From assembly GCA_024711155.1 (NCBI GenBank), contig JANJTK010000197.1, positions 4,739 to 68,738 of the forward strand: a DNA stretch of 64,000 nt. Direction: 5' to 3'. Made by a program: the position numbers and the translations under genes. This document shows positions 7,555-50,835 of the stretch, one piece after another (position 1 is the first letter of the stretch; every line of letters begins with the position of its first letter). The notes beneath the pieces were generated by a model. That model was not told where the DNA came from and searched no databases. It was given only the letters and a program-made list of their open reading frames with translations. Origin of the DNA: Burkholderiaceae bacterium. Lineage in GTDB: Bacteria > Pseudomonadota > Gammaproteobacteria > Burkholderiales > Burkholderiaceae_E.

Positions 7555-7628
7555 GAGAACGGCGGAGCGGCCCGCGAAGCATCCGGGTTCGGGGCTCGCT
7601 CATCGCGAGGCCCGCCGTCGAGTGCGGG

Positions 7629-8696: not shown

Positions 8697-9221
8697 GTGG
8701 CAGAGAAGCAGAAGCGTTCCTGGGACCAGCCCGAAGGCGCGAGCTTCCAGCAGTGGATGGATGCGCGCGTGGCGCGCCGGTCGACGCGAACCTACGACTG
8801 GAACGCGCTGAAGTTCCAGGCCGACCACGATCCGAAGTACGGCCGCGCCCAGATGCGCTACATCGGCACCGGCGGCACCGGCGTCGCGAGCGACAGCAAC
8901 ACGATTTCGGCCGAGCACTTCACGTTCTCGACGATGATTCTGCCGGCAGGCCACGAGGGTCCCCTCCATTTGCACACCGACGTCGAGGAGGTCTTCTTCG
9001 TGCTGCGCGGCAAGGTGAAGCTGATTGCCGAGAAGGACGGCGAGCGCTGGGAAGCGATCGTCGGCGAGCGCGACCTGATTTCCTGGCCGCCCGGGGTCTA
9101 TCGCGGTGAAGTCAACGTCGGGGACGAAGAGGCACTGATGTGCGTGATGCTGGGCTCGGCCCGGCCGATCACGCCGACCTATCCCCCGGATCATCCGCTG
9201 GCGAAGATCAAGCGCGGCTGA
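8697..9221 (+). CDS. cupin domain protein (metal-binding motif intact)
   Basis: ORF 8697..9221 with a GTG start preceded by AAAGGGGG. Cupin motif 1 reads GHEGPLHLHTDVEEVFFVLRG. Confidence 0.65.
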   Translation: MAEKQKRSWDQPEGASFQQWMDARVARRSTRTYDWNALKFQADHDPKYGRAQMRYIGTGGTGVASDSNTISAEHFTFSTMILPAGHEGPLHLHTDVEEVFFVLRGKVKLIAEKDGERWEAIVGERDLISWPPGVYRGEVNVGDEEALMCVMLGSARPITPTYPPDHPLAKIKRG

Positions 9222-9225
9222 ACCA

Positions 9226-13469: not shown

Positions 13470-14258
13470 ATGCGTATCGCGCTGGTCGGTTGCGGTGCCA
13501 TCGGGTCCGCGCTGCTGGAGCTGGTGAAGGACGATCCCGGCTTCGTGGTCGCGGCCATCGTCATGCGGGCCAGCACGGCCAGAGCGGTGAGCGGGCGTCT
13601 TGCGAGCGGTGCGCAGGTCGTGACGACGGTGCCGCTGCAGGGCATCGACCTCGTCGTCGAGGCCGCGGGCCATGCCGCCATCGAGCAGCACGTGTTGCCG
13701 GCCCTGCAACGGGGGGTGCCGTGCATCGTGGCTTCGGTGGGGGCGCTTTCCGCCCGGGGGCTGCCGGAGCGGCTCGAAGCCGCCGCGCGCGCAGGCGGCA
13801 CCCGACTGCAACTGATTGCCGGCGCCATCGGCGCGATCGACGCGCTGGCGGCCGCCCGCATCGGCGGATTGGAGAAGGTGCGCTACACCGGCCGCAAGCC
13901 GCCGCGCGCCTGGACTGGCACCGCCGCCGAGCGGGGCCGCAACCTGGGTGCACTTCTTGCGGAGACGGTGATATTCGAGGGGTCGGCCCGCGAAGCCGCC
14001 ACCCTCTATCCGAAGAACGCCAACGTGGCCGCGACGGTGTCGCTCGCCGGCCTGGGCCTCGACCGCACCATGGTGCGCTTGATCGCCGATCCGTCCCTGG
14101 ACGAAAACGTGCACGAAGTCGAAGCCGCGGGTGCCTTCGGAAGCTTCGCGCTGACCATGCGCAACAAGCCTCTGCCGGCGAATCCCGGGACTTCGGCGCT
14201 GACCGTCTACAGCGCGGTGCGCGCACTGCGCAATCGTGTCTCGGCGCTGTACATCTGA
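13470..14258 (+). CDS. aspartate dehydrogenase (NadX) family protein
   Basis: ORF 13470..14258. Rossmann motif IALVGCGAIGS is followed by YPKNANVAATVSLAGLG and NPGTSALTVYS, typical of the AspDH family. Confidence 0.78.
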   Translation: MRIALVGCGAIGSALLELVKDDPGFVVAAIVMRASTARAVSGRLASGAQVVTTVPLQGIDLVVEAAGHAAIEQHVLPALQRGVPCIVASVGALSARGLPERLEAAARAGGTRLQLIAGAIGAIDALAAARIGGLEKVRYTGRKPPRAWTGTAAERGRNLGALLAETVIFEGSAREAATLYPKNANVAATVSLAGLGLDRTMVRLIADPSLDENVHEVEAAGAFGSFALTMRNKPLPANPGTSALTVYSAVRALRNRVSALYI

Positions 14259-14266
14259 GTCCCGAC

Positions 14267-15745
14267 ATGAAGGCCCGCCTCGAACTTCTCCCGATCGACG
14301 TGGCAGGCGAATGGCGCCCGGGTAACGGCGAAGAATACGAAAGCCTCTACCCCGCCACCGGGGAACCCGTTGCCCGCCTGCGAGCGGCCAGTCCGGGCGA
14401 CGTGGACGAAGCCATCAACCGCGCCGACCGCACCTTCCGCAACAGCGGCTGGGCACAGATGCTGCCGCACGCGCGTGCCGCGGTGCTGCACCGCGTCGCG
14501 GCCCTGATCCGCGAGCGCTCCGAAGACCTCGCGCAGCGGCAGCGTCTGGACAACGGCAAGCCGATCAGCGAGACCCGGGCGCTGGTGGCGAGCGCCGCCG
14601 GCACGTTCCAGTATTTTGCCGCTGCGCTCGAGACGCTGGAGGAGGCCATCACCCCATCGCGCGGCGCCTGGGTGACGATGAGCGTGCACGAACCGATGGG
14701 CGTCGTGGCCGCGATCACGCCGTGGAACTCGCCGATCGCCAGCGAGGCGCAGAAGCTCGCGCCGGCGCGCGCAGCCGGCAACGCGGTGGTCGTGAAGCCG
14801 GCCGAGGTCACGCCGCTCATGGCGCTGGAGCTGGCGAGTATCTGCGAGGAAGCCGGTGTGCCCAGGGGCATGGTGAGCGTGCTGCCCGGCAAGGGCTCGG
14901 TCATCGGCGACGTCATCACCCGGCATCCGCTGGTCAGGCGAGTTTCGTTCACCGGCGGCACGGCCACCGGCAAGCACATCGCCCGCATTGCGGCCGACAA
15001 GATGATGCCGGTGTCGCTGGAGCTGGGCGGAAAGTCGCCCACCATGGTGCTCGAGGACGCGGATCTCGACCACGCGCTGGCCGGTGTGCTCTACGGCATC
15101 TTCAGCAGCTCGGGCGAATCGTGCATCGCAGGCTCGCGCCTGTTCGTCGCGCGTCGCATCTACGACGAGTTCGTCACCCGCCTGGCCCGGGCCGCCGGGT
15201 CGCTGCGCGTGGGCGATCCGTCCAGCGAGCGCACGCAAATGGGTCCGCTGATCACTGCCGGGCACCGCGAGAGCATCGAGCGCTACGTGGCGCTGGGCGT
15301 GAGCGAGGGCGGCCGCATCCGCAGCGGCGGCGTACGCCCGAGCGGCGCCGGCTTCGACCGGGGCTACTTCTACACCCCGACCATCCTCGAGGGCCTGGCC
15401 AACACGGCACGCGTCAGCCGGGAGGAGATCTTCGGCCCGGTGCTGGTAGCGATGCCCTTCGACACCGAGGACGACCTCATCGCCCAAGCCAACGACAGCG
15501 TCTACGCGCTTGCCGCCGGCGTGTGGAGCCGCGACTTCAAGCGCGCCTGGGCGCTCGGCCGCGCGGTGCAGGCCGGCACCGTGTGGATCAATACCTACAA
15601 GCAGTTCTCCGTTTCCACCCCATTCGGCGGCTGGCGCGACTCCGGCCTCGGCCGCGAGAAGGGCCGCGAAGGCATCTTCCAGTACATGCAGCAGAAGAGC
15701 CTGTACTGGGGCATCAACGAGGAGCCGCTCGCATGGGCGCGCTGA
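14267..15745 (+). CDS. NAD(P)-dependent aldehyde dehydrogenase
   Basis: ATG 14267 lies in ORF 13490..15745. Motifs ITPWNSP, ELGGKSP (catalytic Glu), GESCIAGSR (catalytic Cys) and EEIFGPV are present. Confidence 0.9.
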   Translation: MKARLELLPIDVAGEWRPGNGEEYESLYPATGEPVARLRAASPGDVDEAINRADRTFRNSGWAQMLPHARAAVLHRVAALIRERSEDLAQRQRLDNGKPISETRALVASAAGTFQYFAAALETLEEAITPSRGAWVTMSVHEPMGVVAAITPWNSPIASEAQKLAPARAAGNAVVVKPAEVTPLMALELASICEEAGVPRGMVSVLPGKGSVIGDVITRHPLVRRVSFTGGTATGKHIARIAADKMMPVSLELGGKSPTMVLEDADLDHALAGVLYGIFSSSGESCIAGSRLFVARRIYDEFVTRLARAAGSLRVGDPSSERTQMGPLITAGHRESIERYVALGVSEGGRIRSGGVRPSGAGFDRGYFYTPTILEGLANTARVSREEIFGPVLVAMPFDTEDDLIAQANDSVYALAAGVWSRDFKRAWALGRAVQAGTVWINTYKQFSVSTPFGGWRDSGLGREKGREGIFQYMQQKSLYWGINEEPLAWAR

Positions 15746-15800
15746 CGCCGGTGACCGCCGGCCCGGACTACCCGATCGAGCCCGCAAGGATGAGCGCGCC

Positions 15801-16772
15801 ATGAGCATTCTCGGCATCGACCAGATCACCTACGGCGCGGACGAACTCGCCACCAGCCGTCGGTTCTTTATCGACTGGGGCCTGACGCTGGCGCAGGAGC
15901 GCGCCGACGAACTCGTCTTCGAATGCCTCAACGGCTGCCGCGTGGTCGTGGCCGCGTCGACGAAAGCCGACCTGCCGCCACCAATCGAGAGCGGCCCGAC
16001 ACTGCGCGAGGTCGTCTGGGGCGTCGAGAGCGAACAGGACCTTCAACGGTACGCCGACGCGATCCGGGGCAATCCGGATTTCGTCGACGCCGTGGTCGAT
16101 GGTGCCCGGCGCATCGGCTGCACCGATCCGAATGGTCTTGCGGTGCGCCTGCAAGTCAGTCGCAAGCGCCCGGTCGAGGTGGCGTGTGCGGCCATGAACA
16201 CCTGGTCTGCCAGGCCGCGCGTCGACCGGCGCAGCCCGGTCTACGAGCGCGCCACACCCATCGAAGTGGGCCATGTGGTGTTTTTCGTTGTTGACATCGA
16301 GGCGACGGAACGCTTCTACGCCAGCCGGCTCGGCTTCGTCGCGTCCGACCGTTACCCGGGCCGCGGCGCGTTCATGCGCTGCGCACCCTCAGGCGGCCAC
16401 CACGACCTGTTCCTGCTGCAGCTGCCGTCGGGGCAGCGTGGACTCAACCACGTAGCGTTCACAGTGCGCGACATCCACGAGGTGTTCGGCGGCGGCCTGC
16501 ACGTTTCGCGCTGCGGCTGGGAGACCCAACTCGGGCCGGGGCGGCACCCGATCTCGTCGGCCTACTTCTGGTACTTCAGGAACCCGGCCGGTGGCCTGAT
16601 CGAGTACTACGCCGACGAGGACGAGCTCACCGGCAACTGGCAGGCGCGCGACTTCGAACCTGGGCCCACGGTTTTCGCCGAATGGGCTATCGACGGCGGC
16701 ATCGACGGTCACACACGTCGCCAGAGGGACGTCACTCCCCCCGGCGGCAGGTTCCTCACTGAGAAGACCTGA
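15801..16772 (+). CDS. two-domain VOC family protein, possible ring-cleavage dioxygenase
   Basis: ATG 15801 lies in ORF 15510..16772. The 323-aa product has two VOC repeats (GIDQITYGADELATSRRFFIDWGL, and VGHVVFFVVDIEATERFYASRLGF ... LNHVAFTV). Substrate is unknown. Confidence 0.65.
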   Translation: MSILGIDQITYGADELATSRRFFIDWGLTLAQERADELVFECLNGCRVVVAASTKADLPPPIESGPTLREVVWGVESEQDLQRYADAIRGNPDFVDAVVDGARRIGCTDPNGLAVRLQVSRKRPVEVACAAMNTWSARPRVDRRSPVYERATPIEVGHVVFFVVDIEATERFYASRLGFVASDRYPGRGAFMRCAPSGGHHDLFLLQLPSGQRGLNHVAFTVRDIHEVFGGGLHVSRCGWETQLGPGRHPISSAYFWYFRNPAGGLIEYYADEDELTGNWQARDFEPGPTVFAEWAIDGGIDGHTRRQRDVTPPGGRFLTEKT

Positions 16773-18196: not shown

Positions 18197-20494
18197 ATGA
18201 CGCAGTCCAACGAATACGCGGTGATCGGAAAACCGACCCCGAAGAAGGAAGCGCAGGCAAAGGTCACCGGCGGCGCGCGCTTCGCCACCGACGTCTACCT
18301 GCGCGACATGCTGTGGGCCCGGGTCCTGCGCAGCCCCCTGCCCCACGCCCGCATCGTCTCCATCGACACCACGAAGGCGAAGCGCCTGCCCGGGGTGATG
18401 GCGGTGCTCACTGCGGACGACGTGCCGGAGGCGCGCTACGGCGCGCTGGTGCTCGACATGGGGATGTTCGCGCGCGGCAAGGTCAGGTACGTCGGTGAGG
18501 CCATCGCCGCGGTCGCTGCCGTCGACGAGGAAACCGCGGCGCGGGCGGTCCGCTTGATCGAGGTCGAATACGAGGAACTCCCGGCCGTGTTCGACCCGCT
18601 CGAGGCGATGCGCCCGGACGCGCCGCTCGTTCACGAGAACCTGCCGGGCTACAAGACACTCTTCGACCGCACCCGGCGCGCGATGACCGGCAACGTCAAC
18701 TACCAGGCCGACATCGAGTCGGGGAACGTCGACGAGGGCTTCGCGCAGTCCGACTTCGTCTACGAGGACACCTACGAGGTCCAGAAGCAGCATCCGTCCT
18801 ACATGGAACCGAACTCCACGGTCGCGCACCTGGACGAGGACGGCCGGCTCATCGTCTACAACACCACTCAGCGGCCTCACATCAACCAGGCGATCCTCTC
18901 GTCGCTGCTGGGGATCCCGATCTCGCGCATCCGCGTCATCCCTTGCCACGTCGGCGGCGGATTCGGCGGGAAGAACCGGACCCTGTCCGAACCAACGGCG
19001 GCCGCGCTCGCGTTGAAGACGAAGCGCCCGGTGCGCCTCACCTTCTCGCACGAGGAGGAGTTCACGTCGGCGACCACCCGGCACTCCGCGATCATCCGGA
19101 TGAAGACGGGGGTCAGGAAGGACGGCACCCTCGTCGCCACGCAGGTCAGCCTGTACTACGAATGCGGCGCCTACGCGCCGACCCCGAACGCGGTGTGGCT
19201 CGGCGCGATCTCGTCCTCCGGACCGTACCGGATTCCGAACGCCAGGACCGAGGCGTTCTCGGTGTACACGAACAAGATGATGGGTGGCGCCTTTCGCGGA
19301 TACGGCGCGCCGCAGTCGAATTTCGCGCGCGAATCGCAGATGGACCGGATCGCCCGCGACCTGAACATCGATCCGATCGAGCTGCGGCTGAAGAACTGCC
19401 TGGTCCCGGGCGACTCGCTGCACACCGGCCAGCCGCTGCACAGCGTGCGCATCAAGGAGGCGCTGCTCAGGGCGCGGGACATGGCGCAGTGGAACACGCG
19501 CAGGCACGACGGCAACCGCGCGCTCGGCGTCGCCTGCGGCATCTTCGCCTGCGGGGGCTTCGCGACCTCGGCCGTCGTCAAGCTGCACATGGACGGCACC
19601 GCGTTCGTCGCGACCGGCGCGATGGACATGGGCCAGGGCTTGCGCACCGTGATGGCGCAGATTGCCGCCGAGGAACTCGGCATGTCCGCCGACGACGTGA
19701 CGGTGGCGATCGGCGACACCGACCTGACGCCCTTCGACGTGGGAATCTTCGGCGACCGGGGAACGCACACCACCGGGTTGGCGGTCCAGATGGCTGCCGC
19801 CGACGCCAGGCAGCAACTGGTGGCCGCGGCCGCCGATGCGATGGGCGCGAAGGCCACCAACCTGGAGTTGCGGGACCGCACAGTGATCGATCGAAGCACT
19901 CCCGGGAAGATGCTCCATTTCCGCGACGTCCTGGGAGGCGGCCAGTACAAGAAGGGCGGACCGATCATCGGGAAGGCGTCGATCAACCCGTCCGACACGC
20001 CGTTCGATCCGAAGATCGTCCAGGGCGCGGCCTCGAGGATGTTCTCGACCTACACCTTCGCCGTGCACATCGCGGAGGTCGAGGTGGAGCGCGCGACGGG
20101 GATCACGCGCGTGCCGAAGGTCTACGCGGTTCACGACTGCGGCACCGTCATCAACCCCGCGGGTCTCGAGGGGCAGATCATCGGCGGCCTGGCCACCGGT
20201 CTCGGATACGCGCTGTACGAGGAGGTCCTGATCCAGAACGGCCAGGTCCAGAACCCGAGCTTTCTCGAATGCCGTCCGCCCACTGCCGTCGACATGCCCG
20301 CGATCGAGTGGGACGTGGTCGAGGAATTCGATCGCAAGGGGCCCTTCGGCGCCAAGGGCGTCGGAAACGTCTCGGTCATCAACATGGCGCCGGCCATCGC
20401 GAACGCGGTAGAGACGATCACCGGCGTCCGCGTGAAGTCGCTCCCGATCACCGCCGCGAAGATCGTCGGCGGCGCGACGGCCGAGGAGCAATGA
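18197..20494 (+). CDS. xanthine-oxidase-family molybdopterin (large) subunit, set 1 (4-hydroxybenzoyl-CoA reductase alpha-like)
   Basis: ATG 18197 lies in ORF 18146..20494 (765 aa). Motifs GKVRYVGEAIAAVAA, HVGGGFGGK, GGAFRGYGAPQ, AMDMGQG and GPFGAKGVGN are present. Confidence 0.85.
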   Translation: MTQSNEYAVIGKPTPKKEAQAKVTGGARFATDVYLRDMLWARVLRSPLPHARIVSIDTTKAKRLPGVMAVLTADDVPEARYGALVLDMGMFARGKVRYVGEAIAAVAAVDEETAARAVRLIEVEYEELPAVFDPLEAMRPDAPLVHENLPGYKTLFDRTRRAMTGNVNYQADIESGNVDEGFAQSDFVYEDTYEVQKQHPSYMEPNSTVAHLDEDGRLIVYNTTQRPHINQAILSSLLGIPISRIRVIPCHVGGGFGGKNRTLSEPTAAALALKTKRPVRLTFSHEEEFTSATTRHSAIIRMKTGVRKDGTLVATQVSLYYECGAYAPTPNAVWLGAISSSGPYRIPNARTEAFSVYTNKMMGGAFRGYGAPQSNFARESQMDRIARDLNIDPIELRLKNCLVPGDSLHTGQPLHSVRIKEALLRARDMAQWNTRRHDGNRALGVACGIFACGGFATSAVVKLHMDGTAFVATGAMDMGQGLRTVMAQIAAEELGMSADDVTVAIGDTDLTPFDVGIFGDRGTHTTGLAVQMAAADARQQLVAAAADAMGAKATNLELRDRTVIDRSTPGKMLHFRDVLGGGQYKKGGPIIGKASINPSDTPFDPKIVQGAASRMFSTYTFAVHIAEVEVERATGITRVPKVYAVHDCGTVINPAGLEGQIIGGLATGLGYALYEEVLIQNGQVQNPSFLECRPPTAVDMPAIEWDVVEEFDRKGPFGAKGVGNVSVINMAPAIANAVETITGVRVKSLPITAAKIVGGATAEEQ

Positions 20495-20495: not shown

Positions 20496-21518
20496 ATGCA
20501 GGCCCTTCCGGAATTCGAATATTTCGAGCCCGCATCGCTGGAGCAGGCGGCGCAGTTGCTGCGCGACGTCGGCGAGCAGTGCATGGTGCTCGGCGGCGGG
20601 ACCGACCTCGTCCCGTCGATGCGGCAAGGCCTGTTCCGGCCGAAGTACCTGCTGTCGCTGCAGGCGATCGACGCGCTGCGCGACATCCGCTGGGACGATC
20701 GAACCGGACTGGACATCGGCGCACTCGCGACGCTGCGCAGCGTCGAGTCGCACCCCGACGTGCTGCGGCGCTTCCCGCTCGCCGCGCGTGGCGCTTTCGA
20801 GGTCGCGTCGCCGTCGCTCAAGCAAATGGCGACCGTCGGCGGCAACCTCTGCCTGGACACGCGCTGCTACTACTACAACCAGTCCGAGCAGTGGCGGGAG
20901 TGCAGCACCGCGTGCCTGAAGATGGGCGGCGAATTCTGCAAGGCGTCGCCGGGCGGGCGGGCGCGCAAGTGCTTCGCGGCGTTCTCGGGCGACCTGGCGA
21001 CGACGCTCGTCGCGCTCGACGCGCAAGTGACGCTGCTGTCGGGGCGAGGCGAGCGGACGCTCGCGCTGCGCGACTTCTACACCGGCGACGGCGCGAAGCC
21101 CAACGTCAGGCAACCCGACGAGATCCTCACCCGCGTGCTGATTCCGGCTGCCAGCAGCGGCCGCATCGGCTCGTACCGGAAGTACCGCATCCGCGGTTCG
21201 ATCGACTACCCGATTGCCAGTGTCGCGTTGACGGCGCGGCCGACGGCGAACCCGGACGTGTTCGAGGATCCGCGCCTCGTCGTCAGCGCCGTGACGACGC
21301 GGCCTGTGGTCGTCAAGGGCGTCGAGGAGCTCGTGGCCGGGAAGCCGCTGGACGAGGCGCTGATCGAGGCAGCCGCGCAGCTCGCCCGCCGCGCCGCCAT
21401 TCCGGTGGCGAACACCGCGGGGGTGCGCACTCACCGCAAGCACGTCGTCCACGAGTTCGCGCGGGAAGCGTTCGCCGACCTCGTCCAGCAGGCGCGAAGA
21501 GCGCCGCTGCCATCCTGA
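20496..21518 (+). CDS. FAD-binding (medium) subunit, set 1, with Cys-rich insertion (putative extra [4Fe-4S] site)
   Basis: ORF 20496..21518 starts 1 nt after the large-subunit stop. It has a CoxM/XdhB-like fold (VLGGGTDLV, VGGNL). A roughly 37-aa insert reads CLDTRCYYYNQSEQWRECSTACLKMGGEFCKASPGGRARKC. Confidence 0.85.
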   Translation: MQALPEFEYFEPASLEQAAQLLRDVGEQCMVLGGGTDLVPSMRQGLFRPKYLLSLQAIDALRDIRWDDRTGLDIGALATLRSVESHPDVLRRFPLAARGAFEVASPSLKQMATVGGNLCLDTRCYYYNQSEQWRECSTACLKMGGEFCKASPGGRARKCFAAFSGDLATTLVALDAQVTLLSGRGERTLALRDFYTGDGAKPNVRQPDEILTRVLIPAASSGRIGSYRKYRIRGSIDYPIASVALTARPTANPDVFEDPRLVVSAVTTRPVVVKGVEELVAGKPLDEALIEAAAQLARRAAIPVANTAGVRTHRKHVVHEFAREAFADLVQQARRAPLPS

Positions 21519-21532: not shown

Positions 21533-22069
21533 ATGAAACAGGCGCTGACGCTGCAGATCAACGGCCGATCGCACGAGTTGCTCGTCGAGCCCCGCCGGAC
21601 GCTGCTCCAGGTGCTGCGCGAGGACCTCGCGCTGACGGGAACCAAGGAGGTCTGCCTGCTGGGATCCTGCGGCGCGTGCACCGTGCTCGTCGACGGCAAG
21701 CCGGCGCTCTCCTGCCTCGTGCTGGCAGTGTCGTGCCGCAACCGGCAGGTCACCACGATCGAGGGACTCGCGCGCGACGGCGAACTGCACCCGCTGCAGC
21801 AGGCGTTCATCGACAAGGGCGCAGTGCAGTGCGGCTACTGCACGCCCGGCATGATCATGGCCGGGAAGGCGCTGCTCGACGAGCACCCGGCACCGACCGC
21901 CGCGCAGGCGCGCCAGGCGATCGCGGGGAACCTGTGCCGCTGCACAGGATACGCGCAGATCGTCGACGCAATCGTGAGTGCAGGCGGCGCGTCGGGACCT
22001 TGCTGCGGCGGCGTGCCGGCGCAGCCCGCCCTTGCGGCCCCGTACCTGATGCCGGAGACCGGCGAGTAG
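21533..22069 (+). CDS. [2Fe-2S]-binding (small) subunit, set 1
   Basis: ATG 21533 lies in ORF 20579..22069. Cluster motifs [20 protein letters not shown] and CRCTGY are present. Confidence 0.88.
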
Positions 22070-22082: not shown

Positions 22083-23036
22083 ATGGACACCGCGTTCTCC
22101 GACGCGCCCGACATCAGGATCTCGGTACGCCAGGTCTTCGGATTCGACTCGGACCTTCAGGTTCCGGCGTTCAGCGAAGCGAGCGAGCACGTGCCCGATC
22201 TCGACGAAGCGTACTGCTTCGACCTCGAGACCACGATGGCGATCCTGGTCGCGTTCGCCCACAACCGTCGCCTGCTGATCCAGGGTCGCCACGGCAGCGG
22301 CAAGTCGTCGCACATCGAGCAGGTCGCAGCGCGCCTGAACTGGCCGACGGTGCGCGTCAACCTGGACGGCCAGATCACGCGCACCGACCTGATCGGCCGC
22401 GACGCCATCGTGTTGCGCGAAGGCAAGCAGGTCACGGAATTCCGTGAAGGCATCCTGCCGTGGGCCTTCCAGCATCCGGTCGCGCTCGTCTTCGACGAGT
22501 ACGACGCGGGCCGCCCGGACGTCATGTTCGCGATCCAGCGGGTGCTCGAACTCGAGGGCCGCCTGACCTTGCTCGACGGCAACCGCGTCCTGCGCCCCCA
22601 CCCCGGGTTCAGGCTCTTCTCGACGGCGAACACGGTCGGGCTCGGCGACGCCACGGGCCTGTACCACGGCACGCAGCTGCTGAACCACGCGCAACTCGAC
22701 CGCTGGAACCTGGTCGCACGACTCGACTACCTCAGGCCCGACGACGAGATCGGGATCGTCCTGGCGAAGACACGCGGATACGACGATGACGAAGGCCGCA
22801 AGGCCGTCGCGTCGATGGTCGCGATGGCGAACCTGACGCGTTCCGGTTTTGCCGCCGGGGACGTCTCCGCCGTGATGTCGCCGCGGACAGTCATCACCTG
22901 GGCCGAGAATGCGCGCCTCTTCGGCGACGTTCGACTGGCGTTCCGCCTGACCTACCTGAACCGCTGCGACGACTTCGAGCGACCGATCGTTGCCGAGTAC
23001 TACCAGCGCTGCTTCGACGACGACCTCGGCGCGTAG
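22083..23036 (+). CDS. cobS: CobS-like AAA+ (MoxR-class) ATPase
   Basis: ORF 22083..23036 starts 13 nt after the small-subunit stop. Walker A is [13 protein letters not shown] and Walker B is LVFDEYD. There is strong by-eye resemblance to aerobic cobaltochelatase CobS ([57 protein letters not shown]). Confidence 0.8.
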
Positions 23037-23061
23037 CGCAGCGACGCGCGAAGATCATCGA

Positions 23062-24948
23062 ATGTCCGAGTCCGATCCGGCGCACGATCCGCTCGCGCGA
23101 CTCTGCGCCGTGACCGCGGCGACGATGCGCGCGCTGGCGGGCCGCGCGGACATTCCGCTCCCGTTCGCCCCGGACCCCGTCGGCCCGGGGATCCCGGACG
23201 CCCGCACGGCAGAGCCGGACGCAGCTCTCGCCGGCGATGCCCTCGCCCGCTTTCGCGGCGACGCCGACGCAGTTGCGTTGCGCCTGCGCCTGCACGACCC
23301 CGCCCTTCACGCGCGCCTCGCGCCCGCCGGCGGCGACGCCCGCGCCGCCTTCGACGCCCTGGAGCAGTTGCGCGTCGAAGCGCTCGGCGCGATCCACATG
23401 CGTGGCGTGGCCGCGAACCTTCGCGCCGCCGCGCAGGCGCGATGGCATACGCGCTGGCTCGACGCCGCGCACGGTCGCGATACAGCGCACCGTGGCGACA
23501 CCGCACCCGTCGCCGACCTCCTGGCGCTGCTCGCACGCGAGCGGCTCACTGGCGACCGCTGCTGGCCGCGTGCGGCCGATGGCGTCATCGACCGCTGGCG
23601 CACCCGGCTCGATGCCAGCGTCGAGCGTCGACTCGATAGACTCGTCGACGCCGTCGCCGACCAGGACCGCTTCGGCGAGCAGGTGCGTCTCCTTCTTTCC
23701 GAGGCCGAGCTCGACGACGCATGCCCGCCGAAGATCGAGTCTTCCGGGGGAGCACCCGAACCCGACTGCGACCGTCCCGACGACACGCCTCGCGACGAGC
23801 GCGCGATCGACGCCGCCAGCGTGGAGCCCGACGCCGCGCCCACGCGTGCACTCGAGTCGAGTGCCCCGCTGGCCGGCCGCGACGAAGAGCACGGCACCGA
23901 GGCCGCCCCGCAGGGGCCGGCGCCCGCTGCCGTGCAATCGGCGCCGGCGGCGGCCTGCGCGCCGCCCTCTCGCTATCGGCCATTTACCACTGCGCACGAC
24001 GAGGTCGTCACGCCGGGCGACCTGCGCGATCGCGGCGAGTTGCTGCGGCTTCGCGCGCTTCTCGACGCCCTGATCGCGGCGAGCGGTCGCGCGACCTCCC
24101 GCGACGCCGCCCGCCTGCAGCGCCAGCTGCTCGCCAGCACCCCCCGGGGCTGGGACTTCGAGCTCGAGGCAGGCCTGCTCGACACCGCGCGCCTGGTGCG
24201 CACGATCGTTGCCCCCGACAACGCACGCATCTACAAGAGCGAGCGCGAGGAGCGCGTCCCCGAGACGACCGTCACGCTGCTGGTCGACAACTCGGGATCG
24301 ATGCGCGGGCGACCGATCGCGCTCGCAGCGATGACCGCCGACATCGTCGCGCGCACGCTCGAGCGCTGCGGCATCGGCACCGAGATCCTGGGCTTCACGA
24401 CCCGCGCATGGAAGGGTGGCCGTTCACGCAAGGACTGGGTCGCCCAGGGCAGGCCGCCGGCCCCGGGCCGTCTCACGGACCTGCGGCACGTCGTCTACAA
24501 GTCGGCCGGCACGCCGTGGCGGCGCGCCCGCGTCGGCCTTGCGCTGATGCTCGACGAGGGCCTGCTGAAGGAGAACGTCGACGGCGAGGCACTCCTCTGG
24601 GCGCACGCGCGGCTGCTCGCGCGCCCCGAGCGACGGCGGATCCTGATGGTGGTCTCCGACGGCGCCCCGCTGGACGACTCTACGACTTGTACGAACGCAC
24701 CCGACTACCTCGAACGGCACCTGAGAGAGGTCATCGCGTGGATCGAGCGCCTGTCCCTCGTCGAGTTGACGGCCATCGGCATCTGCCACGACGTCTCGCG
24801 CCATTACCGTCGGGCCCTGACCCTCGACGATGCGGAGCAGCTGGGCAGCGCGGTGATCCGGGAACTGGGTGCGCTCTTCTCGCCATCCCGGAGCTCGGGC
24901 AACCGGGGGTCGGAGCTGTCAGGCCGCCCTCGTCATGGACCCAGGTAG
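23062..24948 (+). CDS. cobT: CobT-like von Willebrand factor A (VWA) protein
   Basis: ATG 23062 lies in ORF 22990..24948 (628 aa). The C-terminal VWA domain has the MIDAS motif [14 protein letters not shown]. CobT-like blocks follow ([60 protein letters not shown]). Confidence 0.8.
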
Positions 24949-24970: not shown

Positions 24971-25765
24971 TCAGCTGTTGCCGCCCGAACTGCGGCGCAC
25001 CCGCACGAGTTGCGAGACGATCCCGACGGCAATCTCGGCGGGTGTGTTGTTGCCGACCTTCTCGCCGACGGGACAGACGATCCGGTCCACGAAGGCGGGG
25101 TCCAGCCCTTCCCGGGCCAGCTCGCGCCTGAGCGCCTGCCCCTTCGACTTGCTGCCGATGACCCCGAGATAGGGAAGCGGCAACGCGGCCGCGGCGATCG
25201 CCTTCAGCACCGGAACGTCGGTGGCGTGCCCCATCGTCATGACGAGCACCATCGATTGCGGGCGGACGCGCCGCACGCCCTCCTCGAACTCCGGCACCTG
25301 CACCGCTTCGAGCGCCTCCGCACGCGGCAGGCGGTCGAGCCAGTCAGCGCGGACGTCGATGCAGGTGACGCGGCAATCCAGTTCGACGAGGAAGCGGCAC
25401 AGCTTCTGCGCCACGTGCCCGGCGCCGAAGATGACGATGTCCCAGTCGAGATCGGGACGCTGCACTTCGAAGAAGACCGCGGCCTCGCCGGCACACGTCA
25501 TGCCCAGGTCCTTCATCAGATTGAACCGCGCGAAACGCGTACCCGCGCCGGCCTCGCCGGCAAGCATCTCCAGCGCGATCTCCCGGCATCGGCTCTCGAG
25601 CCGCCCGCCCCCGACCGTTCCGAAGAAGAGCCCGTCGCGGGTGAACAGCGCGCGCGCCCCCACGACCTGCGGAATGCTGCCGCGGGCATCGACGAGGGTG
25701 GCGACGCAAAACGCGGCTCGCGCGCTCAGCAGCGCCTCGATCTGCCTCAACAGGATCGCGTTCAA
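24971..25765 (-). CDS. xdhC: XdhC/CoxI family molybdenum-cofactor insertion chaperone
   Basis: ORF 24971..25765 with a TTG start and GGAGA 7 nt upstream. The N-domain reads ATLVDARGSIPQVVGARALF. The Rossmann-like C-domain reads IVIFGAGHVAQ. Confidence 0.8.
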   Translation of the reverse strand: MNAILLRQIEALLSARAAFCVATLVDARGSIPQVVGARALFTRDGLFFGTVGGGRLESRCREIALEMLAGEAGAGTRFARFNLMKDLGMTCAGEAAVFFEVQRPDLDWDIVIFGAGHVAQKLCRFLVELDCRVTCIDVRADWLDRLPRAEALEAVQVPEFEEGVRRVRPQSMVLVMTMGHATDVPVLKAIAAAALPLPYLGVIGSKSKGQALRRELAREGLDPAFVDRIVCPVGEKVGNNTPAEIAVGIVSQLVRVRRSSGGNS

Positions 25766-25878: not shown

Positions 25879-26703
25879 TCACGCGTCGTCCCGGTACCCG
25901 AACAACTGCGAGAGCACGCGCGCCGCTCCGGTCACCGCGCTCTCGACCCGGGCCGAGACCTGCGGGTCGAAGCGCGAGTCCGGTCCGGCCACGCTGATCG
26001 CCGCAATGACGCCGCCGAGACGGTCCCGGACCGCGGCGGCGCATGCGTCGACGCCGCGCTCGAAGCCCGACCGGCTCCACGCGCATCCGCGCGCCTGGTC
26101 CTCGGCAATCCGCCGGTCGAGCGCGGCGTGAGAGGCCGGCGTCTTCCCGGGCATGGAGGCGAGCGGCCCCTTTCCGAGAAGTTCGCGGCGACGCGCCGAA
26201 GGCAATCCTGCAAGCAGGATTCGCCCCGGGGCCGTGACGTGCGCAGGCACCCGGCTGCCGACGCGAATGTTGCTGACCAGCAGCGTGTTGGGTAACTCCT
26301 GCAGCAGGTACACCATCTCGTCGCCCGACAGGACTGCGAGATGCGCCGAGAACTGCGTCTCGGCGGCGAGTCGTGCGAGGATCGGCTGCGCCAGGCGCAA
26401 CAGGTCCCGGTCGCCGAGTGCGGCCGCCGCCATCGCGAGGAAGCGCGCTCCGACGCGGTATCCGGCTGCGCCCGGCGCGCGCTCGACGATTCGCTCGTGC
26501 TCGAGCGTGTCGAGCAGCCGGGCGAGCGTGACCCGATTGATGTCGAGTTGTCGCGCCAGGTGACTCAGTGGAATCGTTACTCCGCCGGCCGCTATGTAAT
26601 CGAGCAGCCGCATTGCGCGCTGCACCGGGGAGATCAGGTAGACCCCCTGGGCATGCTCCGGACCGGACGATTCGTCCGCCGGGCCGGACTTGCCGAGTGC
26701 CAT
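25879..26703 (-). CDS. IclR family transcriptional regulator
   Basis: From ORF 25879..26898, trimmed to ATG 26703 (GGGAGG 9 nt upstream). The product (MALGKSG...) has an HTH (LSHLARQLDINRVTLARLLDTLEHERIV) and an effector domain (GSRVPAHVTAPGRILLA). Confidence 0.8.
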   Translation of the reverse strand: MALGKSGPADESSGPEHAQGVYLISPVQRAMRLLDYIAAGGVTIPLSHLARQLDINRVTLARLLDTLEHERIVERAPGAAGYRVGARFLAMAAAALGDRDLLRLAQPILARLAAETQFSAHLAVLSGDEMVYLLQELPNTLLVSNIRVGSRVPAHVTAPGRILLAGLPSARRRELLGKGPLASMPGKTPASHAALDRRIAEDQARGCAWSRSGFERGVDACAAAVRDRLGGVIAAISVAGPDSRFDPQVSARVESAVTGAARVLSQLFGYRDDA

Positions 26704-26966
26704 TGTTCGCATCCTCCCGAAGACCGCGGCGCCGCCGACGGGCCGGCCCGGGCGGTCGCTGCTGCATCGCCGCAAACGTGCGGAACAGGCTCCGATTCTA
26801 GCCCGCTCGGCATCCTGCCCCGACTCATTCCAGAATCTCGTTCCTTTTTTGACTTCGGTCAATGACGCGTCGCGCCGGCAGGGAATAGCGTGAGGCACAC
26901 AACAAGACCACGCACTGTGAGCGCCCCACTGCGCCGCGGCCGAGTCGCGAATCGGAGACCCGCATC

Positions 26967-27539
26967 ATGCTGATCGAGGGCCAGTTCCCGGTCGCCGCTG
27001 CGCCGGAGAGCCTGCTCGGCTGCCTCTTCGACGCGAAGTTGATGGCCTCCTGCCTGCCAGGCTGCGAGACCCTCGAGGCGATCGACGCGGATCGTTATCG
27101 GGCCGTGGTCGTCGTGGGAATGGCCGGCATCAAGGCCCGCTTCGATCTCGAGGTGGAAATTACCCGGCGCGACGCGTTCGACATCTGGACGGTTACCAAG
27201 GGCGCCGAGGGCGGACAGGCGAGCACGCTGCGCGCCGAGAGCCAGGTGAGCCTGCACCCGATCCCGGAAGGCACCCTCGTGAGCTACCGCTCCGATGTGT
27301 CGCTGACCGGTCGGCTCGGGCGGTTCGCACTGGGCATGATGAAGAAGAAGGCGCAGAGCATGGGCGACGAGTTCGCCGCGAACCTGCGCCAGAAGCTGGA
27401 ACAGGTCGGGACCGGCGCCGCGACGCCGCCTGCCGAGGCCGTCCCGGCGCAGCCGGCGCCGCCGCCCGCGTCGCGATCCTGGTGGCGCCGGCTCCTCGCG
27501 TGGCTGCGCGGCGAGCGCGCGGTGCAGAAAGCGGACTGA
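26967..27539 (+). CDS. CoxG-like SRPBCC family protein
   Basis: ORF 26967..27539 with GGAGA upstream. The product reads MLIEGQFPVAAAPESLLGCLFDAKLMASCLPGCE ... GRLGRFALGMMKKKA, with a Pro/Ala-rich tail ending in an amphipathic segment. Confidence 0.75.
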   Translation: MLIEGQFPVAAAPESLLGCLFDAKLMASCLPGCETLEAIDADRYRAVVVVGMAGIKARFDLEVEITRRDAFDIWTVTKGAEGGQASTLRAESQVSLHPIPEGTLVSYRSDVSLTGRLGRFALGMMKKKAQSMGDEFAANLRQKLEQVGTGAATPPAEAVPAQPAPPPASRSWWRRLLAWLRGERAVQKAD

Positions 27540-27556
27540 CTGCGAAGGAATCGGGC

Positions 27557-28408
27557 ATGAGCGCACTGCAAGGACTGTATCGCCCCACCACGGTGGACGA
27601 AGCCACTGCCCTTCTTCGACAGGATCCGGACGCCAAGCCGATGTCGGGCGGGGCGACGCTCGTCGCCATGCTCAACGCCGGAGTGATCGAGCCCGCTGCG
27701 CTGGTCTGCCTGGATCGGATCGAAGAGCTCAAGGGCATCTCGGTATCCGGCGACGGCGGCGTGCGCATCGGAGCCTTCACCCGGCACCGGGAGACGGCGC
27801 AATGCCGGCTCGAGCTGGGTGAACTCGGCGTCGTGCGTCACGCCGCCTCGCAGATTGCAAACGCGACGGTGCGCAACATGGGGACGATCGGAGGGTCGAT
27901 CTCCTTCGCGGACCCGGGCCTCGACTACCCGCCCGCGCTCGTCGCAGCCGGCGCCGCGATCGAGATCGCCTCCGTCGACGGCCGCCGCAGCGTGGCCGCG
28001 CAGGAGTTCTTCGTCGACTGGTACACGACCGCGCTCGAGCCGGGCGAGATCGTCACGGCCGTCATCCTGCCGCCGCCCGAGGGAGGCCAGGGGCTTTACC
28101 TCAAGCACTGCCGCGTCTCGGGCGACTATGCGACGGTCTCGGTGGCGGTGAGCGCGACCGATTCCGGTCGCCTGCGGGTCGCGATCGGCGGGTGCGGTCC
28201 CGTCCCGATTCGCGACGACGAAGCCGACACGATTCTCTCCGCGGACCGCAGCGATGCGGCCTGCGCGCGCGCGGGAGCCCTGCTGCAGGACAGAGCCGAC
28301 CCGCTCGACGACGTACGCGGCAGCGCGGACTACCGCCGCAGACTCATTCCTCGCATGCTCGCCAGTGCCCTTCGCGAGCTCGCGTCCATCAAGGGAGGTG
28401 CCGCGTGA
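27557..28408 (+). CDS. FAD-binding (medium) subunit, set 2 (CoxM-like, no Cys insertion)
   Basis: ATG 27557 lies in ORF 27482..28408. Motifs MSGGATLV, NMGTIGGSISFADPGLDYPPAL and a C-terminal GSADYRRRL are present. Confidence 0.85.
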   Translation: MSALQGLYRPTTVDEATALLRQDPDAKPMSGGATLVAMLNAGVIEPAALVCLDRIEELKGISVSGDGGVRIGAFTRHRETAQCRLELGELGVVRHAASQIANATVRNMGTIGGSISFADPGLDYPPALVAAGAAIEIASVDGRRSVAAQEFFVDWYTTALEPGEIVTAVILPPPEGGQGLYLKHCRVSGDYATVSVAVSATDSGRLRVAIGGCGPVPIRDDEADTILSADRSDAACARAGALLQDRADPLDDVRGSADYRRRLIPRMLASALRELASIKGGAA

Positions 28409-28914
28409 ATCTGCCTTCGTCCACGGCCGAGGCGACCATCCTCACCCTGCGCATCAATGGCGAGCAGGTGCAGGTGCGCGCCGGCCTGCGCGACACGCTG
28501 TTGACCGTGTTGCGTGACCAGCTGCAGCTGACCGCGGCCAAGCGGGGCTGCAACCAGGGCGTCTGCGGCGCCTGCACCATCGAGATCGACGGCAGGCCGG
28601 CACGCGCGTGCCTGACGCTGGCGCGCGCCTGCGAGGGCGCCGACGTGCGCACGCTGGAGGGCATGAGCGACAGTCCCGCAATGAAGGCGCTGCAAGACGC
28701 CTTCGCCAGCCACCAGGCGTTCCAGTGCGGGTTCTGCACCCCCGGAATGCTGGTCAGCGCCCGCTCGCTCCTCGAAGGGAATCCTGCGCCGGACGAGGCC
28801 GCAATCCGGGTCGCGATGTCGGGCAACCTGTGCCGGTGCACCGGCTATGTCAGCATCATCGCCGCCGTCGACGCGGCGGCCTCGACACTCGGCGATCACG
28901 GAGCGAGCTCATGA
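28405..28914 (+). CDS. [2Fe-2S]-binding (small) subunit, set 2
   Basis: GTG 28405 (GTGA overlap, RBS AAGGGAGG) lies in ORF 28192..28914. Motifs CNQGVCGACT, CGFCTPGM and CRCTGY are present. Confidence 0.85.
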   Translation: MNLPSSTAEATILTLRINGEQVQVRAGLRDTLLTVLRDQLQLTAAKRGCNQGVCGACTIEIDGRPARACLTLARACEGADVRTLEGMSDSPAMKALQDAFASHQAFQCGFCTPGMLVSARSLLEGNPAPDEAAIRVAMSGNLCRCTGYVSIIAAVDAAASTLGDHGASS

Positions 28915-31286
28915 GCACCGCAACCCGCGACGGTCTCGACCGGCCCGTGCCCGGCGATCGGCAGGCGGTCGGGCGTCCGATCCAGCAGATCGAGGCCGCC
29001 GAGAAGTTGAGCGGATCGGCGCAATACATCGCCGATCTGTACCGACCCGGCATGCTGTACGGGGCGATCGTCCAGAGCACGCACGCGCACGCGCGCATCC
29101 GCGGTTACGACCTGTCGGACGCCCTGGCACTTGCAGGCGTGCGCGCGATCGTCACCGGCGACGATCTCGACGAACACCACCGGATGGGCGCGTTCATCAA
29201 GGACGAGCCGGGCTTTGCGAAGGGGAAAGTGCGCTACGTGGGCGAGATCGTCGCCGGCGTCGCGGCCGACACTGAAGAGATCGCGCGCGCGGCGGCGCGC
29301 CTCGTCAAGGTCGACTACGAAGTGCTGTCCCCGGTCCTGGATCCCGCCGACGCGCTCGGATCCGACGCAGCGCGCGTGCATGAACGAGCCGAATCGTACG
29401 AAAAGGTCTTCGATTCCGGGACGGCCGGCAACGTCTGCTCGCGGACCGCATTCCGGCAGGGCGAACCCGACGGTGCGTGGGCCGACTGCGACATCGTCGT
29501 CGAGGGGGAGTACCAGACCCAGGCGCAGGCGCACCTGTCGATCGAGCCGTGCGGCGCGCTGGCGGAGGTCGACGCCGCTGGCCGGGTGACGCTGTGGTCG
29601 GCGAACCAGTCCGTGTTCAGGGTCCAGGCCAGCGTTTGCGAGTCGCTGGGACTGCCGATGACGAAACTGCGCTGCGTGACGCCGCGCATCGGCGCGGGGT
29701 TCGGGAACAAGATGGAAGCGCACGTCCAGCCGCTGGTCGTGCTGCTCGCCCTGAAGGCCCGGCGTCCGGTCAAGCTGATCCTGAGCCGAGAGGAGGACTT
29801 CGAAACGGTGCGCGCCCGGCATCCGTTCAGGATCCGCATGAAGACGGGGGCGCGCAAGGACGGAACCCTGGTGGCGCGCGAGACCGAATTGCTGCTCGAC
29901 GGCGGTGCCTACGGCGACGACAGTCCCGGCGTTCTCGGATACGCGCTGCTCATGAACTGCGGCCCCTACCGCATCCCGAACGTGCACGCGCACGGCCAGG
30001 TCGTCTACACCAACAAGATGCGCTTCGGCGCCATGCGCGGCTTCGGCGTGCCGCAGGTCACCTTTGCGTCGGAACAGCAGCTCGACGAGATCGCTCGCAG
30101 GCTCGACATGGATCCGCTCGCACTGCGGCGCAGGAACATGCTGTCGCCGGGCGATCCCTGGTTCGGCTACCAGGAAGTGCGCTCGAACGGCCTGGCGCAG
30201 TGCGTCGACATCGTCGAGCGCGAGTCCGGCATGGCGGCGCGCCGTACGCGGGGCTGCCACGACGACGAACGTCCCGGGCGTCGACGCGGATTCGGCGTCG
30301 CGCTGACCGCCCACATCAGCGGGCTGCTCTCGTCCGGCGCCATCGTGCGGATGCTCGAGGACGGAAGCGTGCTGCTGAATACCGGTGCAGTCGACATCGG
30401 GCAGGGCTCGAACACGGTGCTGACGCAGATCTGCGCGGAGTCGCTGAAGCTGCCGGTGGAGCGTGTGGCCATCGCCAGCCCCGACACCGACGGTTCTCCG
30501 TACAACTGGGGCACGACGGCCAGCCGCGTCACCTACGTCACCGGGCGCTCGGTCGCCAAGGCCGCTGCCGAGGTCGAGCGCAAGCTCAAGGAGCACGCGA
30601 GCGAAATGCTCGAGTGCGGCATCGACGATCTCGAACTGCTGCCGGGCGGGAAGGTCGCGATCAAGGGCGTCGGGCAACGCTCGGTCAGTTTCGCCGCGAT
30701 TTCCGGGCGCGCCCACTGGGCTGCGGGCGGTCCGATCATCGGCACCGACAGCTGGGTCTTCGACCAGAAGACCTTCGACCCCAAGCGCTGCACCACGCTC
30801 GGGCTCCCGTTCCCGCAGATCGGAATCTTCAGCTTCGGGGCCCTCGTGACCGAGGTCGAGATCGACGACGCGACCGGCCGCGTTCGCGTGCTGGGCGCGT
30901 GGTCGGCCTGCGACCTCGGCTACGCGATCAATCCCGCCATGGCGAGGGGACAGGTCGAGGGCGCGTTCGTGCAGGGCATGGGCTACGCGCTGACGGAGGA
31001 ACTGGTCTGGGACGGCGGCCGTCTCGCCAATCCCACGCTGATGGACTACAAGATCCCGACGGTCGCGGAACTGCCCGCCACGCTGCGCGCCTACCTGGTC
31101 GAGTCGGAGGAGCCGAGCGGGCCGTTCGGAGCGAAGAGCGTCGGCGAACTCGGGATCAACGGTGTCGCGGCAGCCATCGCGAACGCCATTGCCGATGCCA
31201 CCGGCGTGCGCCTGCACAGGCTTCCGATGACACCGGAACGTGTCCTCGACGGGTTGCTGGCGGACAGCGCCGGTGCGGGGCATTGA
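28911..31286 (+). CDS. xanthine-oxidase-family molybdopterin (large) subunit, set 2
   Basis: ATG 28911 (ATGA overlap) lies in ORF 28608..31286 (791 aa). Motifs GKVRYVGEIVAGVAA, RIGAGFGNK, GAMRGFGVPQ, VDIGQG and GPFGAKSVGE are present. There is no CODH-type AYxCSFR loop. Confidence 0.85.
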   Translation: MSTATRDGLDRPVPGDRQAVGRPIQQIEAAEKLSGSAQYIADLYRPGMLYGAIVQSTHAHARIRGYDLSDALALAGVRAIVTGDDLDEHHRMGAFIKDEPGFAKGKVRYVGEIVAGVAADTEEIARAAARLVKVDYEVLSPVLDPADALGSDAARVHERAESYEKVFDSGTAGNVCSRTAFRQGEPDGAWADCDIVVEGEYQTQAQAHLSIEPCGALAEVDAAGRVTLWSANQSVFRVQASVCESLGLPMTKLRCVTPRIGAGFGNKMEAHVQPLVVLLALKARRPVKLILSREEDFETVRARHPFRIRMKTGARKDGTLVARETELLLDGGAYGDDSPGVLGYALLMNCGPYRIPNVHAHGQVVYTNKMRFGAMRGFGVPQVTFASEQQLDEIARRLDMDPLALRRRNMLSPGDPWFGYQEVRSNGLAQCVDIVERESGMAARRTRGCHDDERPGRRRGFGVALTAHISGLLSSGAIVRMLEDGSVLLNTGAVDIGQGSNTVLTQICAESLKLPVERVAIASPDTDGSPYNWGTTASRVTYVTGRSVAKAAAEVERKLKEHASEMLECGIDDLELLPGGKVAIKGVGQRSVSFAAISGRAHWAAGGPIIGTDSWVFDQKTFDPKRCTTLGLPFPQIGIFSFGALVTEVEIDDATGRVRVLGAWSACDLGYAINPAMARGQVEGAFVQGMGYALTEELVWDGGRLANPTLMDYKIPTVAELPATLRAYLVESEEPSGPFGAKSVGELGINGVAAAIANAIADATGVRLHRLPMTPERVLDGLLADSAGAGH

Positions 31287-36572: not shown

Positions 36573-36608
36573 TGCCACTCCTCGATGATCGCCGTTCGCG
36601 CCTGCGCC

Positions 36609-50834: not shown

Positions 50835-50835
50835 C

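Follow-up and report, generated by a model that had tools for sequence, protein, structure and literature searches.

The question raised by this locus is what a Cys-rich insertion in the FAD-binding subunit of a molybdenum enzyme reveals about the reaction that the enzyme catalyzes. The window, which is the whole 64,000-nucleotide stretch of Burkholderiaceae DNA analyzed here (GCA_024711155.1, contig JANJTK010000197.1, G+C of ~69%), encodes two members of the xanthine-oxidase family, referred to as set 1 and set 2. The initial annotation noted the insertion in set 1 and read it as a hallmark of reductase-type enzymes resembling 4-hydroxybenzoyl-CoA reductase (HcrABC). The observation itself holds; the interpretation holds in part, since the loop is homologous to that of the reductase but neither marks reductases in general nor places the enzyme in HcrABC. 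With moderate confidence, set 1 is taken to be a three-subunit molybdopterin cytosine dinucleotide (MCD) enzyme with an HcrB-type [4Fe-4S] loop, whose large subunit belongs to a separate, uncharacterized clade with Asn and Asp at key sites and which would act on a (hetero)aryl-CoA substrate. The structural genes lie in the order large, FAD, and 2Fe-2S subunit (L-F-S):

18197-20494, plus strand: molybdopterin-binding large subunit, 765 amino acids (aa), member of the Asn/Asp clade (N-clade) by Pfam, motifs and tree; an alternative upstream start is at 18146
20496-21518, plus strand: FAD-binding medium subunit, 340 aa, HcrB-like (Pfam FAD_binding_5 and CO_deh_flav_C)
20850-20972, plus strand: core of the insertion, Cys119 to Cys159 of the FAD subunit (sequence and alignments)
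21533-22069, plus strand: small subunit carrying a pair of [2Fe-2S] clusters, 178 aa (Pfam Fer2_2 and Fer2; gene call in L001)

The domains are those of the xanthine-oxidase family (hammerhead, two MoCo-binding, FAD_binding_5/CO_deh_flav_C, Fer2/Fer2_2, and a nearby XdhC), with Pfam E-values from 1e-11 to 1e-79.

The insertion was measured by BLASTP against the set 2 FAD subunit (27554-28408), in which the sequence quoted for comparison by the initial annotation, NMGTIGGSISFADPGLDYPPALVAAGA, is present. It appears as two neighboring gaps of 29 and 11 residues, which gives 40 residues at about positions 121-160 (20856-20975) rather than the ~37 counted by eye. The six Cys described earlier match TGC codons exactly, at 20850, 20865, 20901, 20913, 20937, and 20970 for Cys119, 124, 136, 140, 148, and 159. 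Six of the seven Cys of the subunit thus fall within 41 residues, and the remaining one is Cys29.

The closest protein of known structure is the FAD subunit of the reductase. HcrB (1rm6_B) is the best PDB match by phmmer for the whole subunit (6.6e-50) as well as a strong match for the loop alone (5.5e-21), and it is also the best structural match of the subunit model by Foldseek (TM-score 0.87/0.91, root-mean-square deviation 2.4 A). The HcrB loop holds a [4Fe-4S] cluster (PMC11760930). In the alignment, Cys124, 140, 148, and 159 correspond to HcrB Cys122, 138, 146, and 155, so the initial annotation was right about the spacing. Cys119 pairs with HcrB Cys117 and Cys136 has no partner in HcrB. 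The four HcrB residues were reportedly identified as the cluster ligands by Unciuleac et al. in 2004. Each of the four Cys is present in 56/56 homologs of the FAD subunit (at least 40% identity), while Cys119 (53/56) and Cys136 (31/56) are not invariant. The same Cys pattern occurs in ten more FAD subunits that partner N-clade large subunits in the fetched loci. An AlphaFold2 model built on the 56 homologs has a mean predicted local distance difference test (pLDDT) score of 88.5, and the loop scores 62-80, as is expected of a cofactor-dependent loop when the cofactor is left out of the model. The predicted [4Fe-4S] ligands are therefore Cys124 (codon at 20865), Cys140 (20913), Cys148 (20937), and Cys159 (20970), and the FAD subunit very likely binds such a cluster beside FAD.

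Two oxidases show that the loop does not indicate the direction of catalysis. A homologous Cys-rich insertion is found at the same site in the aldehyde oxidase of Methylobacillus KY4400 (5y6q_B, 2.4e-12 for the loop alone) and in PaoB of Escherichia coli (5g5g_B, 3.1e-07). The loops of both are also reported to hold a [4Fe-4S] cluster. Neither has an equivalent of Cys148; instead, a Cys of 5y6q_B aligns with position 136, and in PaoB a Cys sits a few residues further upstream. Judged from these alignments, the invariant Cys set of the set 1 FAD-subunit family is of the HcrB type. PaoABC and the Methylobacillus enzyme also differ from set 1 in being aldehyde oxidases with the canonical Glu kept in the large subunit, and PaoABC has an exported small subunit, whereas the small subunit of set 1 shows no twin-arginine or other export leader. 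The PaoC and PaoA models do not reach their cut-offs (299.5 against 1180, and 151.8 against 322 with the match beginning at profile position 52). The converse case is Ucd (Ucd/Ucdh of Enterocloster), a member of the same family and its second proven reductive dehydroxylase after 4-hydroxybenzoyl-CoA reductase (PMC12771579). The FAD subunit of Ucd lacks the [4Fe-4S] loop and its activity is raised by NADH (PMC11760930, PMC12658268), so the loop is not required for reduction. With the loop in two aldehyde oxidases and none in Ucd, it is neither sufficient nor necessary for reductive chemistry, and the idea of a reductase hallmark has to be given up.

The loop itself is a further member of a known device, and it is widespread. 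Species-representative genomes were scanned with the patterns GN[LI]CLDTRC or generic GGTD[LM][VIL]PS[ML][RK]; more than 600 stretches match either pattern and 80 loci were kept. Most of the 80 (L007-L085) are metagenome-assembled genomes (MAGs) of Terriglobia/Acidobacteriota that encode an HcrB-like FAD subunit, and the large subunit upstream of it in those Terriglobia loci is HcrA-like, with the motif GAKE[AC][SG]EG. Hcr-like enzymes are thus very frequent in that phylum, which is usually regarded as aerobic.

The enzyme is not HcrABC. All three subunits fall below the NCBIfam cut-offs for the Hcr equivalogs, at 578.2 against 994.55 for the large subunit (TIGR03194), 252.2 against 404.55 for the FAD subunit (TIGR03195), and 180.6 against 257.8 for the 2Fe-2S subunit (TIGR03193). 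The large subunit of set 2, an enzyme without the loop, scores 559 on the same HcrA model; the match of set 1 is therefore generic. In a rough neighbor-joining tree with only 50 bootstraps, HcrA and the large subunits encoded ahead of loop-bearing FAD genes in MAGs of Acidobacteriota and others form one clade (100/100). The large subunit of set 1 falls in the separate N-clade (100/100), on the side of the Glu-type enzymes that include set 2. HcrA, the best solved relative of the large subunit, reads GAKEASEG and YSSR at the sites where set 1 reads GAKGVGN and FGDR. The Thauera aromatica enzyme HcrCAB (1rm6/1sb3) resembles set 1 in being a three-subunit MCD enzyme with adjacent large and FAD genes, in its ~40-residue FAD-subunit insertion with four Cys at equal positions, and in having this loop better conserved than the remainder of the FAD subunit; it differs in that the set 1 operon runs L-F-S and then into CobS/CobT. 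The enzyme looks like a mosaic of an HcrB-like medium subunit and a non-Hcr catalytic subunit, and the data agree with the initial annotation's suggestion of a paralog that uses some other aryl-CoA or heteroaryl substrate.

The large subunit sets the enzyme apart most clearly. Its motif GPFGAKGVGN(724)VSVIN has Asn (codon 20366-20368) four residues after the Lys of G-x-K, where set 2 has GAKSVGE, HcrA has GAKEASE, and the Hcr-like enzymes of Acidobacteriota have GAKE[AC][SG]E. Position 724 is that of the catalytic Glu (E1261 in the bovine enzyme), which is held essential for catalysis in the xanthine-oxidase family. Among the 120 best database homologs, from which the clade boundary was drawn, Asn is found in 67/67 with at least 51% identity and Glu in all 51 with at most 46% identity and a recognizable motif. 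By this comparison the N-clade is sharply bounded. A second residue changes with it: Asp520 (19754-19756, GIFGDRGT) is present in 100% of the N-clade, while 92% of the homologs outside have Ser (GSR). The residues K197, R226, H228, N230, N331, W334, L335, C401, and D520 are invariant in the clade and absent outside. R226, H228, and N230 directly follow the Gln of TTQ, and the loop with N331, W334, and L335 is presumably the counterpart of the loop of bovine R880 and Cys388 of CO dehydrogenase. Position 520 maps to residue 1080 of bovine xanthine dehydrogenase (1fo4_A alignment, span 8-530 to 571-1090), adjacent to Ala1079 of the Mo pocket. Other elements of the pocket are kept, since the alignment with HcrA shows TTQ225RPH and AFRGYGAPQ (FRG(F/Y)G motif); by motif, Gln225 is the equivalent of bovine Q767, which contacts Mo=O.

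Members of the N-clade are labeled as MAGs of Burkholderiales, Rhodospirillaceae, Syntrophorhabdales, Desulfatiglandales, and Deltaproteobacteria, and their sources give them generic family names only. The clade was not encountered on plasmids of PLSDB by tblastn, which returned neither a member nor an annotated relative (best match 39% identical). A metagenome scan with an alignment of the clade C-terminus, based on generic peptide patterns, gave no clade members among the matches listed; the 80 metagenome loci among them are of the Glu type and at most 53% identical. In the species-representative scan, L006 is the only clade locus among the 80 kept of more than 600 stretches.

A few other variants of the large subunit were found along the way. 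Gln occupies the Glu site in an enzyme from a Gammaproteobacteria MAG whose partner FAD subunit bears the loop (L075, about 7530-9815, GAKEAGQGPLLP), and Met occupies it on a metagenome contig (L144, near 9252, GPYGAKEAGMSIAMSAA). The 1128-aa protein P0221 is a Glu-type large subunit (43% identical to that of set 1) fused to an Oxidored_FMN (old yellow enzyme) domain, a hint that hydroxylation and ene-reduction may be coupled in related pathways. In L179/L180 a separate gene with old yellow enzyme, Fer4_20, and Pyr_redox_2 domains follows the transporter genes. L171/L172 have an additional 775-aa large-subunit gene (13963-16290) after the clade L-F-S genes, without FAD or FeS genes of its own, followed by TRAP transporter genes, a 338-aa Fer4 protein, and hydantoinase A.

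The structural genes of set 1 are followed by a gene pair of cobaltochelatase type:

22083-23036, plus strand: CobS-type AAA+ ATPase (Pfam CobS_N and AAA_5)
23062-24948, plus strand: CobT-type von Willebrand A protein (Pfam CobT and CobT_C)
24971-25765, minus strand: XdhC-type molybdenum-cofactor insertion chaperone (Pfam)
25879-26898, minus strand: IclR-family regulator, start uncertain (Pfam; same arrangement in L177)

CobS starts 14 bp after the small-subunit gene. Both proteins stay below their NCBIfam cut-offs (TIGR01650, 519 against 558.55 for CobS; TIGR01651, 596 against 759.05 for CobT). Besides the window, four distinct arrangements show the order L-F-S-CobS-CobT, and two of them (L176 and L177) were reached by a search from CobS. 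The pair lies at 22083-24948 in the window, 8110-10949 in L086, 8273-11130 in L170, 8001-10840 in L176, 7909-10748 in L177, and 8001-10860 in L178. The large subunits of L170, L176, L177, and L178 have both GAKGVGN and GIFGDR, and GAKGVGN is present in L086. MAGs with this joint operon include GCA_964267925.1 and GCA_021166835.1. The window CobS is 70-75% identical to proteins named CobS in cultured Alphaproteobacteria, so its sequence cannot separate a housekeeping cobaltochelatase motor from a co-opted copy. The window has no coding-like open reading frame (ORF) of CobN size, and a literature search found no paper that connects CobS/CobT with members of the xanthine-oxidase family. The nearest parallel is CoxD/CoxE of aerobic CO dehydrogenase, where AAA+ and von Willebrand A genes also directly follow the structural genes. 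The window pair differs in being of the CobS/CobT cobaltochelatase type, and the window enzyme lacks the Cys loop of CO dehydrogenase. A URO-D-family (uroporphyrinogen decarboxylase-like) gene is located upstream of L-F-S-CobS-CobT in L176 (2680-3948) and L177 (2588-3856), and genes for an enoyl-CoA hydratase and a short-chain dehydrogenase/reductase are also directly upstream of the operon in both.

The substrate class is suggested by genes that the window shares with other N-clade loci. Set 2 and the shared pathway genes, 6-25 kb downstream, are as follows:

26967-31286, plus strand: set 2 enzyme, whole (same layout as L179/L180)
26967-27539, plus strand: CoxG-like protein of set 2
27554-28408, plus strand: FAD subunit of set 2, without the loop
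about 28405-28914, plus strand: 2Fe-2S subunit of set 2
about 28950-31286, plus strand: large subunit of set 2, with the canonical GAKSVGE
35997-36578, minus strand: UbiX-type flavin prenyltransferase (Pfam Flavoprotein)
36609-38156, minus strand: acyl/aryl-CoA ligase, putative start
38240-40186, minus strand: hydantoinase B (HyuB), with hydantoinase A an ATP-dependent hydrolase/carboxylase pair
40200-42299, minus strand: hydantoinase A (HyuA)
45041-46453, minus strand: UbiD-family (de)carboxylase

Orthologs of these genes lie beside N-clade operons elsewhere. A ligase that is 71% identical is directly upstream of the operon in L089; HyuA and HyuB orthologs (70-85% and 66-81% identical) are found in L087, L171/L172, and L173; a UbiD ortholog (75%) is near the operon in L087; and XdhC orthologs (55-63%) are found in L086, L006, and L088. 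The surroundings of the clade vary, with a second, loop-less Glu-type enzyme in the order FAD-FeS-large as a recurrent element. Hydantoinase A/B, an aryl-CoA-type ligase, UbiD/UbiX, and amidohydrolase_2 also recur, as do ABC, TRAP, or TTT transporters and MarR, IclR, or GntR regulators. The nearest Glu-type relative, P0209, is 45-46% identical to both window enzymes, and its locus (HyuA-HyuB-UbiD-ligase-CoxG-FAD without loop-FeS-large-ABC transporter) mirrors the set 2 side of the window. The closest solved relative of HyuA is N-methylhydantoinase, those of the ligase are malonyl- and feruloyl-CoA synthetases, and UbiD is closest in the PDB to 6h6x/6h6v, which we take to be the furandicarboxylate decarboxylase HmfF. 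The ligase, hydantoinase A/B, UbiD/UbiX, the second, ordinary Mo hydroxylase, and transporters and regulators of aromatic-acid type point to a (hetero)aromatic carboxylate that is handled as its CoA thioester, and such an activated acid is the probable substrate.

The furoate route of Cupriavidus basilensis is a partial likeness. HmfABC, with HmfD (ligase) and HmfFG (UbiD/UbiX), brings together a decarboxylase, a CoA ligase, and a Mo enzyme with a heteroaryl-CoA as substrate, and its gene order is also large-FAD-FeS. HmfA has 1015 aa (PMC8091172) against the 765 aa of the set 1 large subunit, a comparison of length only. Hydantoinase A/B has no counterpart in the furoate route, and among the database homologs listed no source names clade members as Hmf. 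The indoleacetate (iaa), acetophenone-carboxylase, furoate, and isonicotinate/citrazinate routes were each considered as templates; each overlaps in part and none is claimed. In the papers found by a literature search, no anaerobic route with this gene set is described. Upstream of the operon are genes for a FAD monooxygenase, an extradiol dioxygenase, and an aldehyde dehydrogenase, none of which is conserved beside clade members elsewhere. For that reason, the monooxygenase and dioxygenase were considered as part of the operon but rejected. The window also has two loci resembling 2-oxoacid:ferredoxin oxidoreductases, a POR/POR_N protein at its start (59-1513) and an indolepyruvate-oxidoreductase-like pair (48687-52452; TPP_enzyme_C, then POR with DUF6537). 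Both could supply reduced ferredoxin.

In the proposed mechanism, Cys124, 140, 148, and 159 would hold a cubane cluster next to FAD. The cluster would be a port through which single electrons pass to or from an outside low-potential carrier of ferredoxin type, and the wire would run between this carrier, the [4Fe-4S] cluster, FAD, the two [2Fe-2S] clusters, and Mo, in one direction or the other. Least certain in this explanation is the direction in which the electrons flow. Inward flow, in which reduced ferredoxin would drive a reduction by analogy with Hcr, is plausible but falls short of probable. It is favored by the HcrB-type ligand set, by the contrast with the loop-less Glu-type enzyme in the same clusters, by the occurrence of the clade in strict anaerobes, and by the two 2-oxoacid:ferredoxin oxidoreductase-like loci. 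A somewhat less likely possibility is an oxidative hydroxylase that would unload its electrons through the cluster, and the remaining share falls to some other reaction. Several points weigh against our interpretation. The O2-dependent genes just upstream speak for outward flow, and PaoB and the Methylobacillus oxidase demonstrate that the loop can serve an oxidizing enzyme. Pathways with two successive Mo hydroxylases are common, so set 1 may be merely the second hydroxylase. HcrA keeps the Glu; therefore, the change from Glu to Asn is no signature of reduction. The full coupling of Glu/Ser to Asn/Asp suggests a relocated carboxylate in a remodeled Mo pocket, with Asp520 placed there by alignment only. 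No characterized member of the N-clade was found, and the clade is known from sequences alone. The tree that separates it is a rough one, and a scan of the window for the motif CxxCxxCxxxCP revealed no ferredoxin gene.

The strongest competing explanation, though an unlikely one, is that set 1 is an oxidative hydroxylase or dehydrogenase of the ordinary kind, comparable to PaoABC or the Methylobacillus oxidase, and the second of two successive Mo hydroxylases in a pathway for an N- or O-heterocycle. The sole function of the [4Fe-4S] cluster would then be to send electrons out to ferredoxin or some other acceptor, and the missing Glu would have Asp520 in its place. Oxidases with the loop exist, single gene clusters regularly combine set 1 with a canonical Glu-type enzyme, and the genes upstream are aerobic. 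The swap of E724/S520 for N724/D520 is perfectly coupled, and a cyclic-amide hydrolase, as suggested by the nearest PDB relative of HyuA, would open a lactam formed by hydroxylation. However, the invariant Cys follow HcrB, including Cys148, and not PaoB or 5y6q_B; a ferredoxin port on only one of two co-operonic hydroxylases would be unexplained; and we know of no hydroxylase of the family that functions without the Glu. It is far less probable that set 1 is a true ortholog of HcrABC/HbaBCD, in which reduced ferredoxin would remove the para-hydroxyl from 4-hydroxybenzoyl-CoA. Among solved structures, HcrA is indeed closest to the large subunit and HcrB to the FAD subunit, the four loop Cys are kept, and many homologs of the FAD subunit carry the JGI label '4-hydroxybenzoyl-CoA reductase subunit beta'. 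A CoA ligase and UbiD/UbiX, both linked to the clade, belong to the anaerobic phenol route as well. Against this stand the scores of all three subunits far under the NCBIfam cut-offs, with the set 2 large subunit nearly equal, the position of the large subunit outside the HcrA clade, and a Mo site with Asn in place of Glu and Asp in place of Ser. In addition, the gene order is L-F-S rather than hcrCAB, and the best NCBIfam model of the small subunit is not Hcr gamma.

It is equally improbable that the loop is not a redox center but a structural Zn site, a disulfide-stabilized knob, or the remnant of a decayed cluster. The pLDDT of the loop is below that of the rest of the subunit and a cluster is invisible in a sequence, but a low score is expected for a loop modeled without its cofactor. 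The four counterparts of the HcrB ligand Cys are kept in 56/56 homologs down to 40% identity while the two extra Cys drift, and a decayed site would not keep the exact ligand set. A more far-reaching version of our interpretation is that the Asn724/Asp520 clade could be a new catalytic class that uses ferredoxin for a reductive step (for example dehydroxylation, deamination, or ring reduction) on a (hetero)aryl-CoA. The rebuilt Mo site in the Burkholderiales-like subgroup might be matured by the co-opted CobS/CobT, which could insert a second metal in a manner similar to CoxD/E. We regard this as rather improbable.

For annotation, these results imply that automatic naming of such subunits as 'HcrB' is unsafe and that the loop is unusable as a marker of reductive chemistry. 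What would be new is an HcrB-like electron port on an uncharacterized Asn/Asp catalytic clade, which in one lineage is in an operon with CobS/CobT; the catalytic-subunit clade and the CobS/CobT linkage both go beyond the initial annotation. The N-clade is the more valuable result, as it spans Burkholderiales, Rhodospirillaceae, and strictly anaerobic lineages and keeps the whole electron wire, yet has replaced the catalytic Glu of the family. If the coupled change from Ser to Asp relocates the base, the clade is a natural experiment on the mechanism of the family; otherwise, a new type of reaction is likely. CobS/CobT in the operon would amount to a new job for a cobaltochelatase-type motor. 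The recurrent combination of a CoA ligase, an ATP-dependent cyclic-amide hydrolase/carboxylase, and UbiD/UbiX outlines an undescribed catabolic route for (hetero)aromatic acids.

Two extraneous observations were also made. An 892-aa ORF of the window (4752-7430) has an enoyl-CoA hydratase domain only at residues 612-873, and no Pfam domain matches its N-terminal 600 residues; the ORF may have been called too long in high-GC DNA. Two plasmid loci, L174 and L175, were set aside. The latter, from the Alicycliphilus denitrificans plasmid pDP3 (NZ_CP051297.1, 22028-36223), is a xanthine-dehydrogenase-family operon in the order medium-large-small with a branched-chain-type ABC transporter, and it adjoins the tricarballylate genes tcuA and tcuB. 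The isonicotinate/citrazinate route, which uses two Mo hydroxylases, a CoA ligase, and a reductase, ends in tricarballylate.

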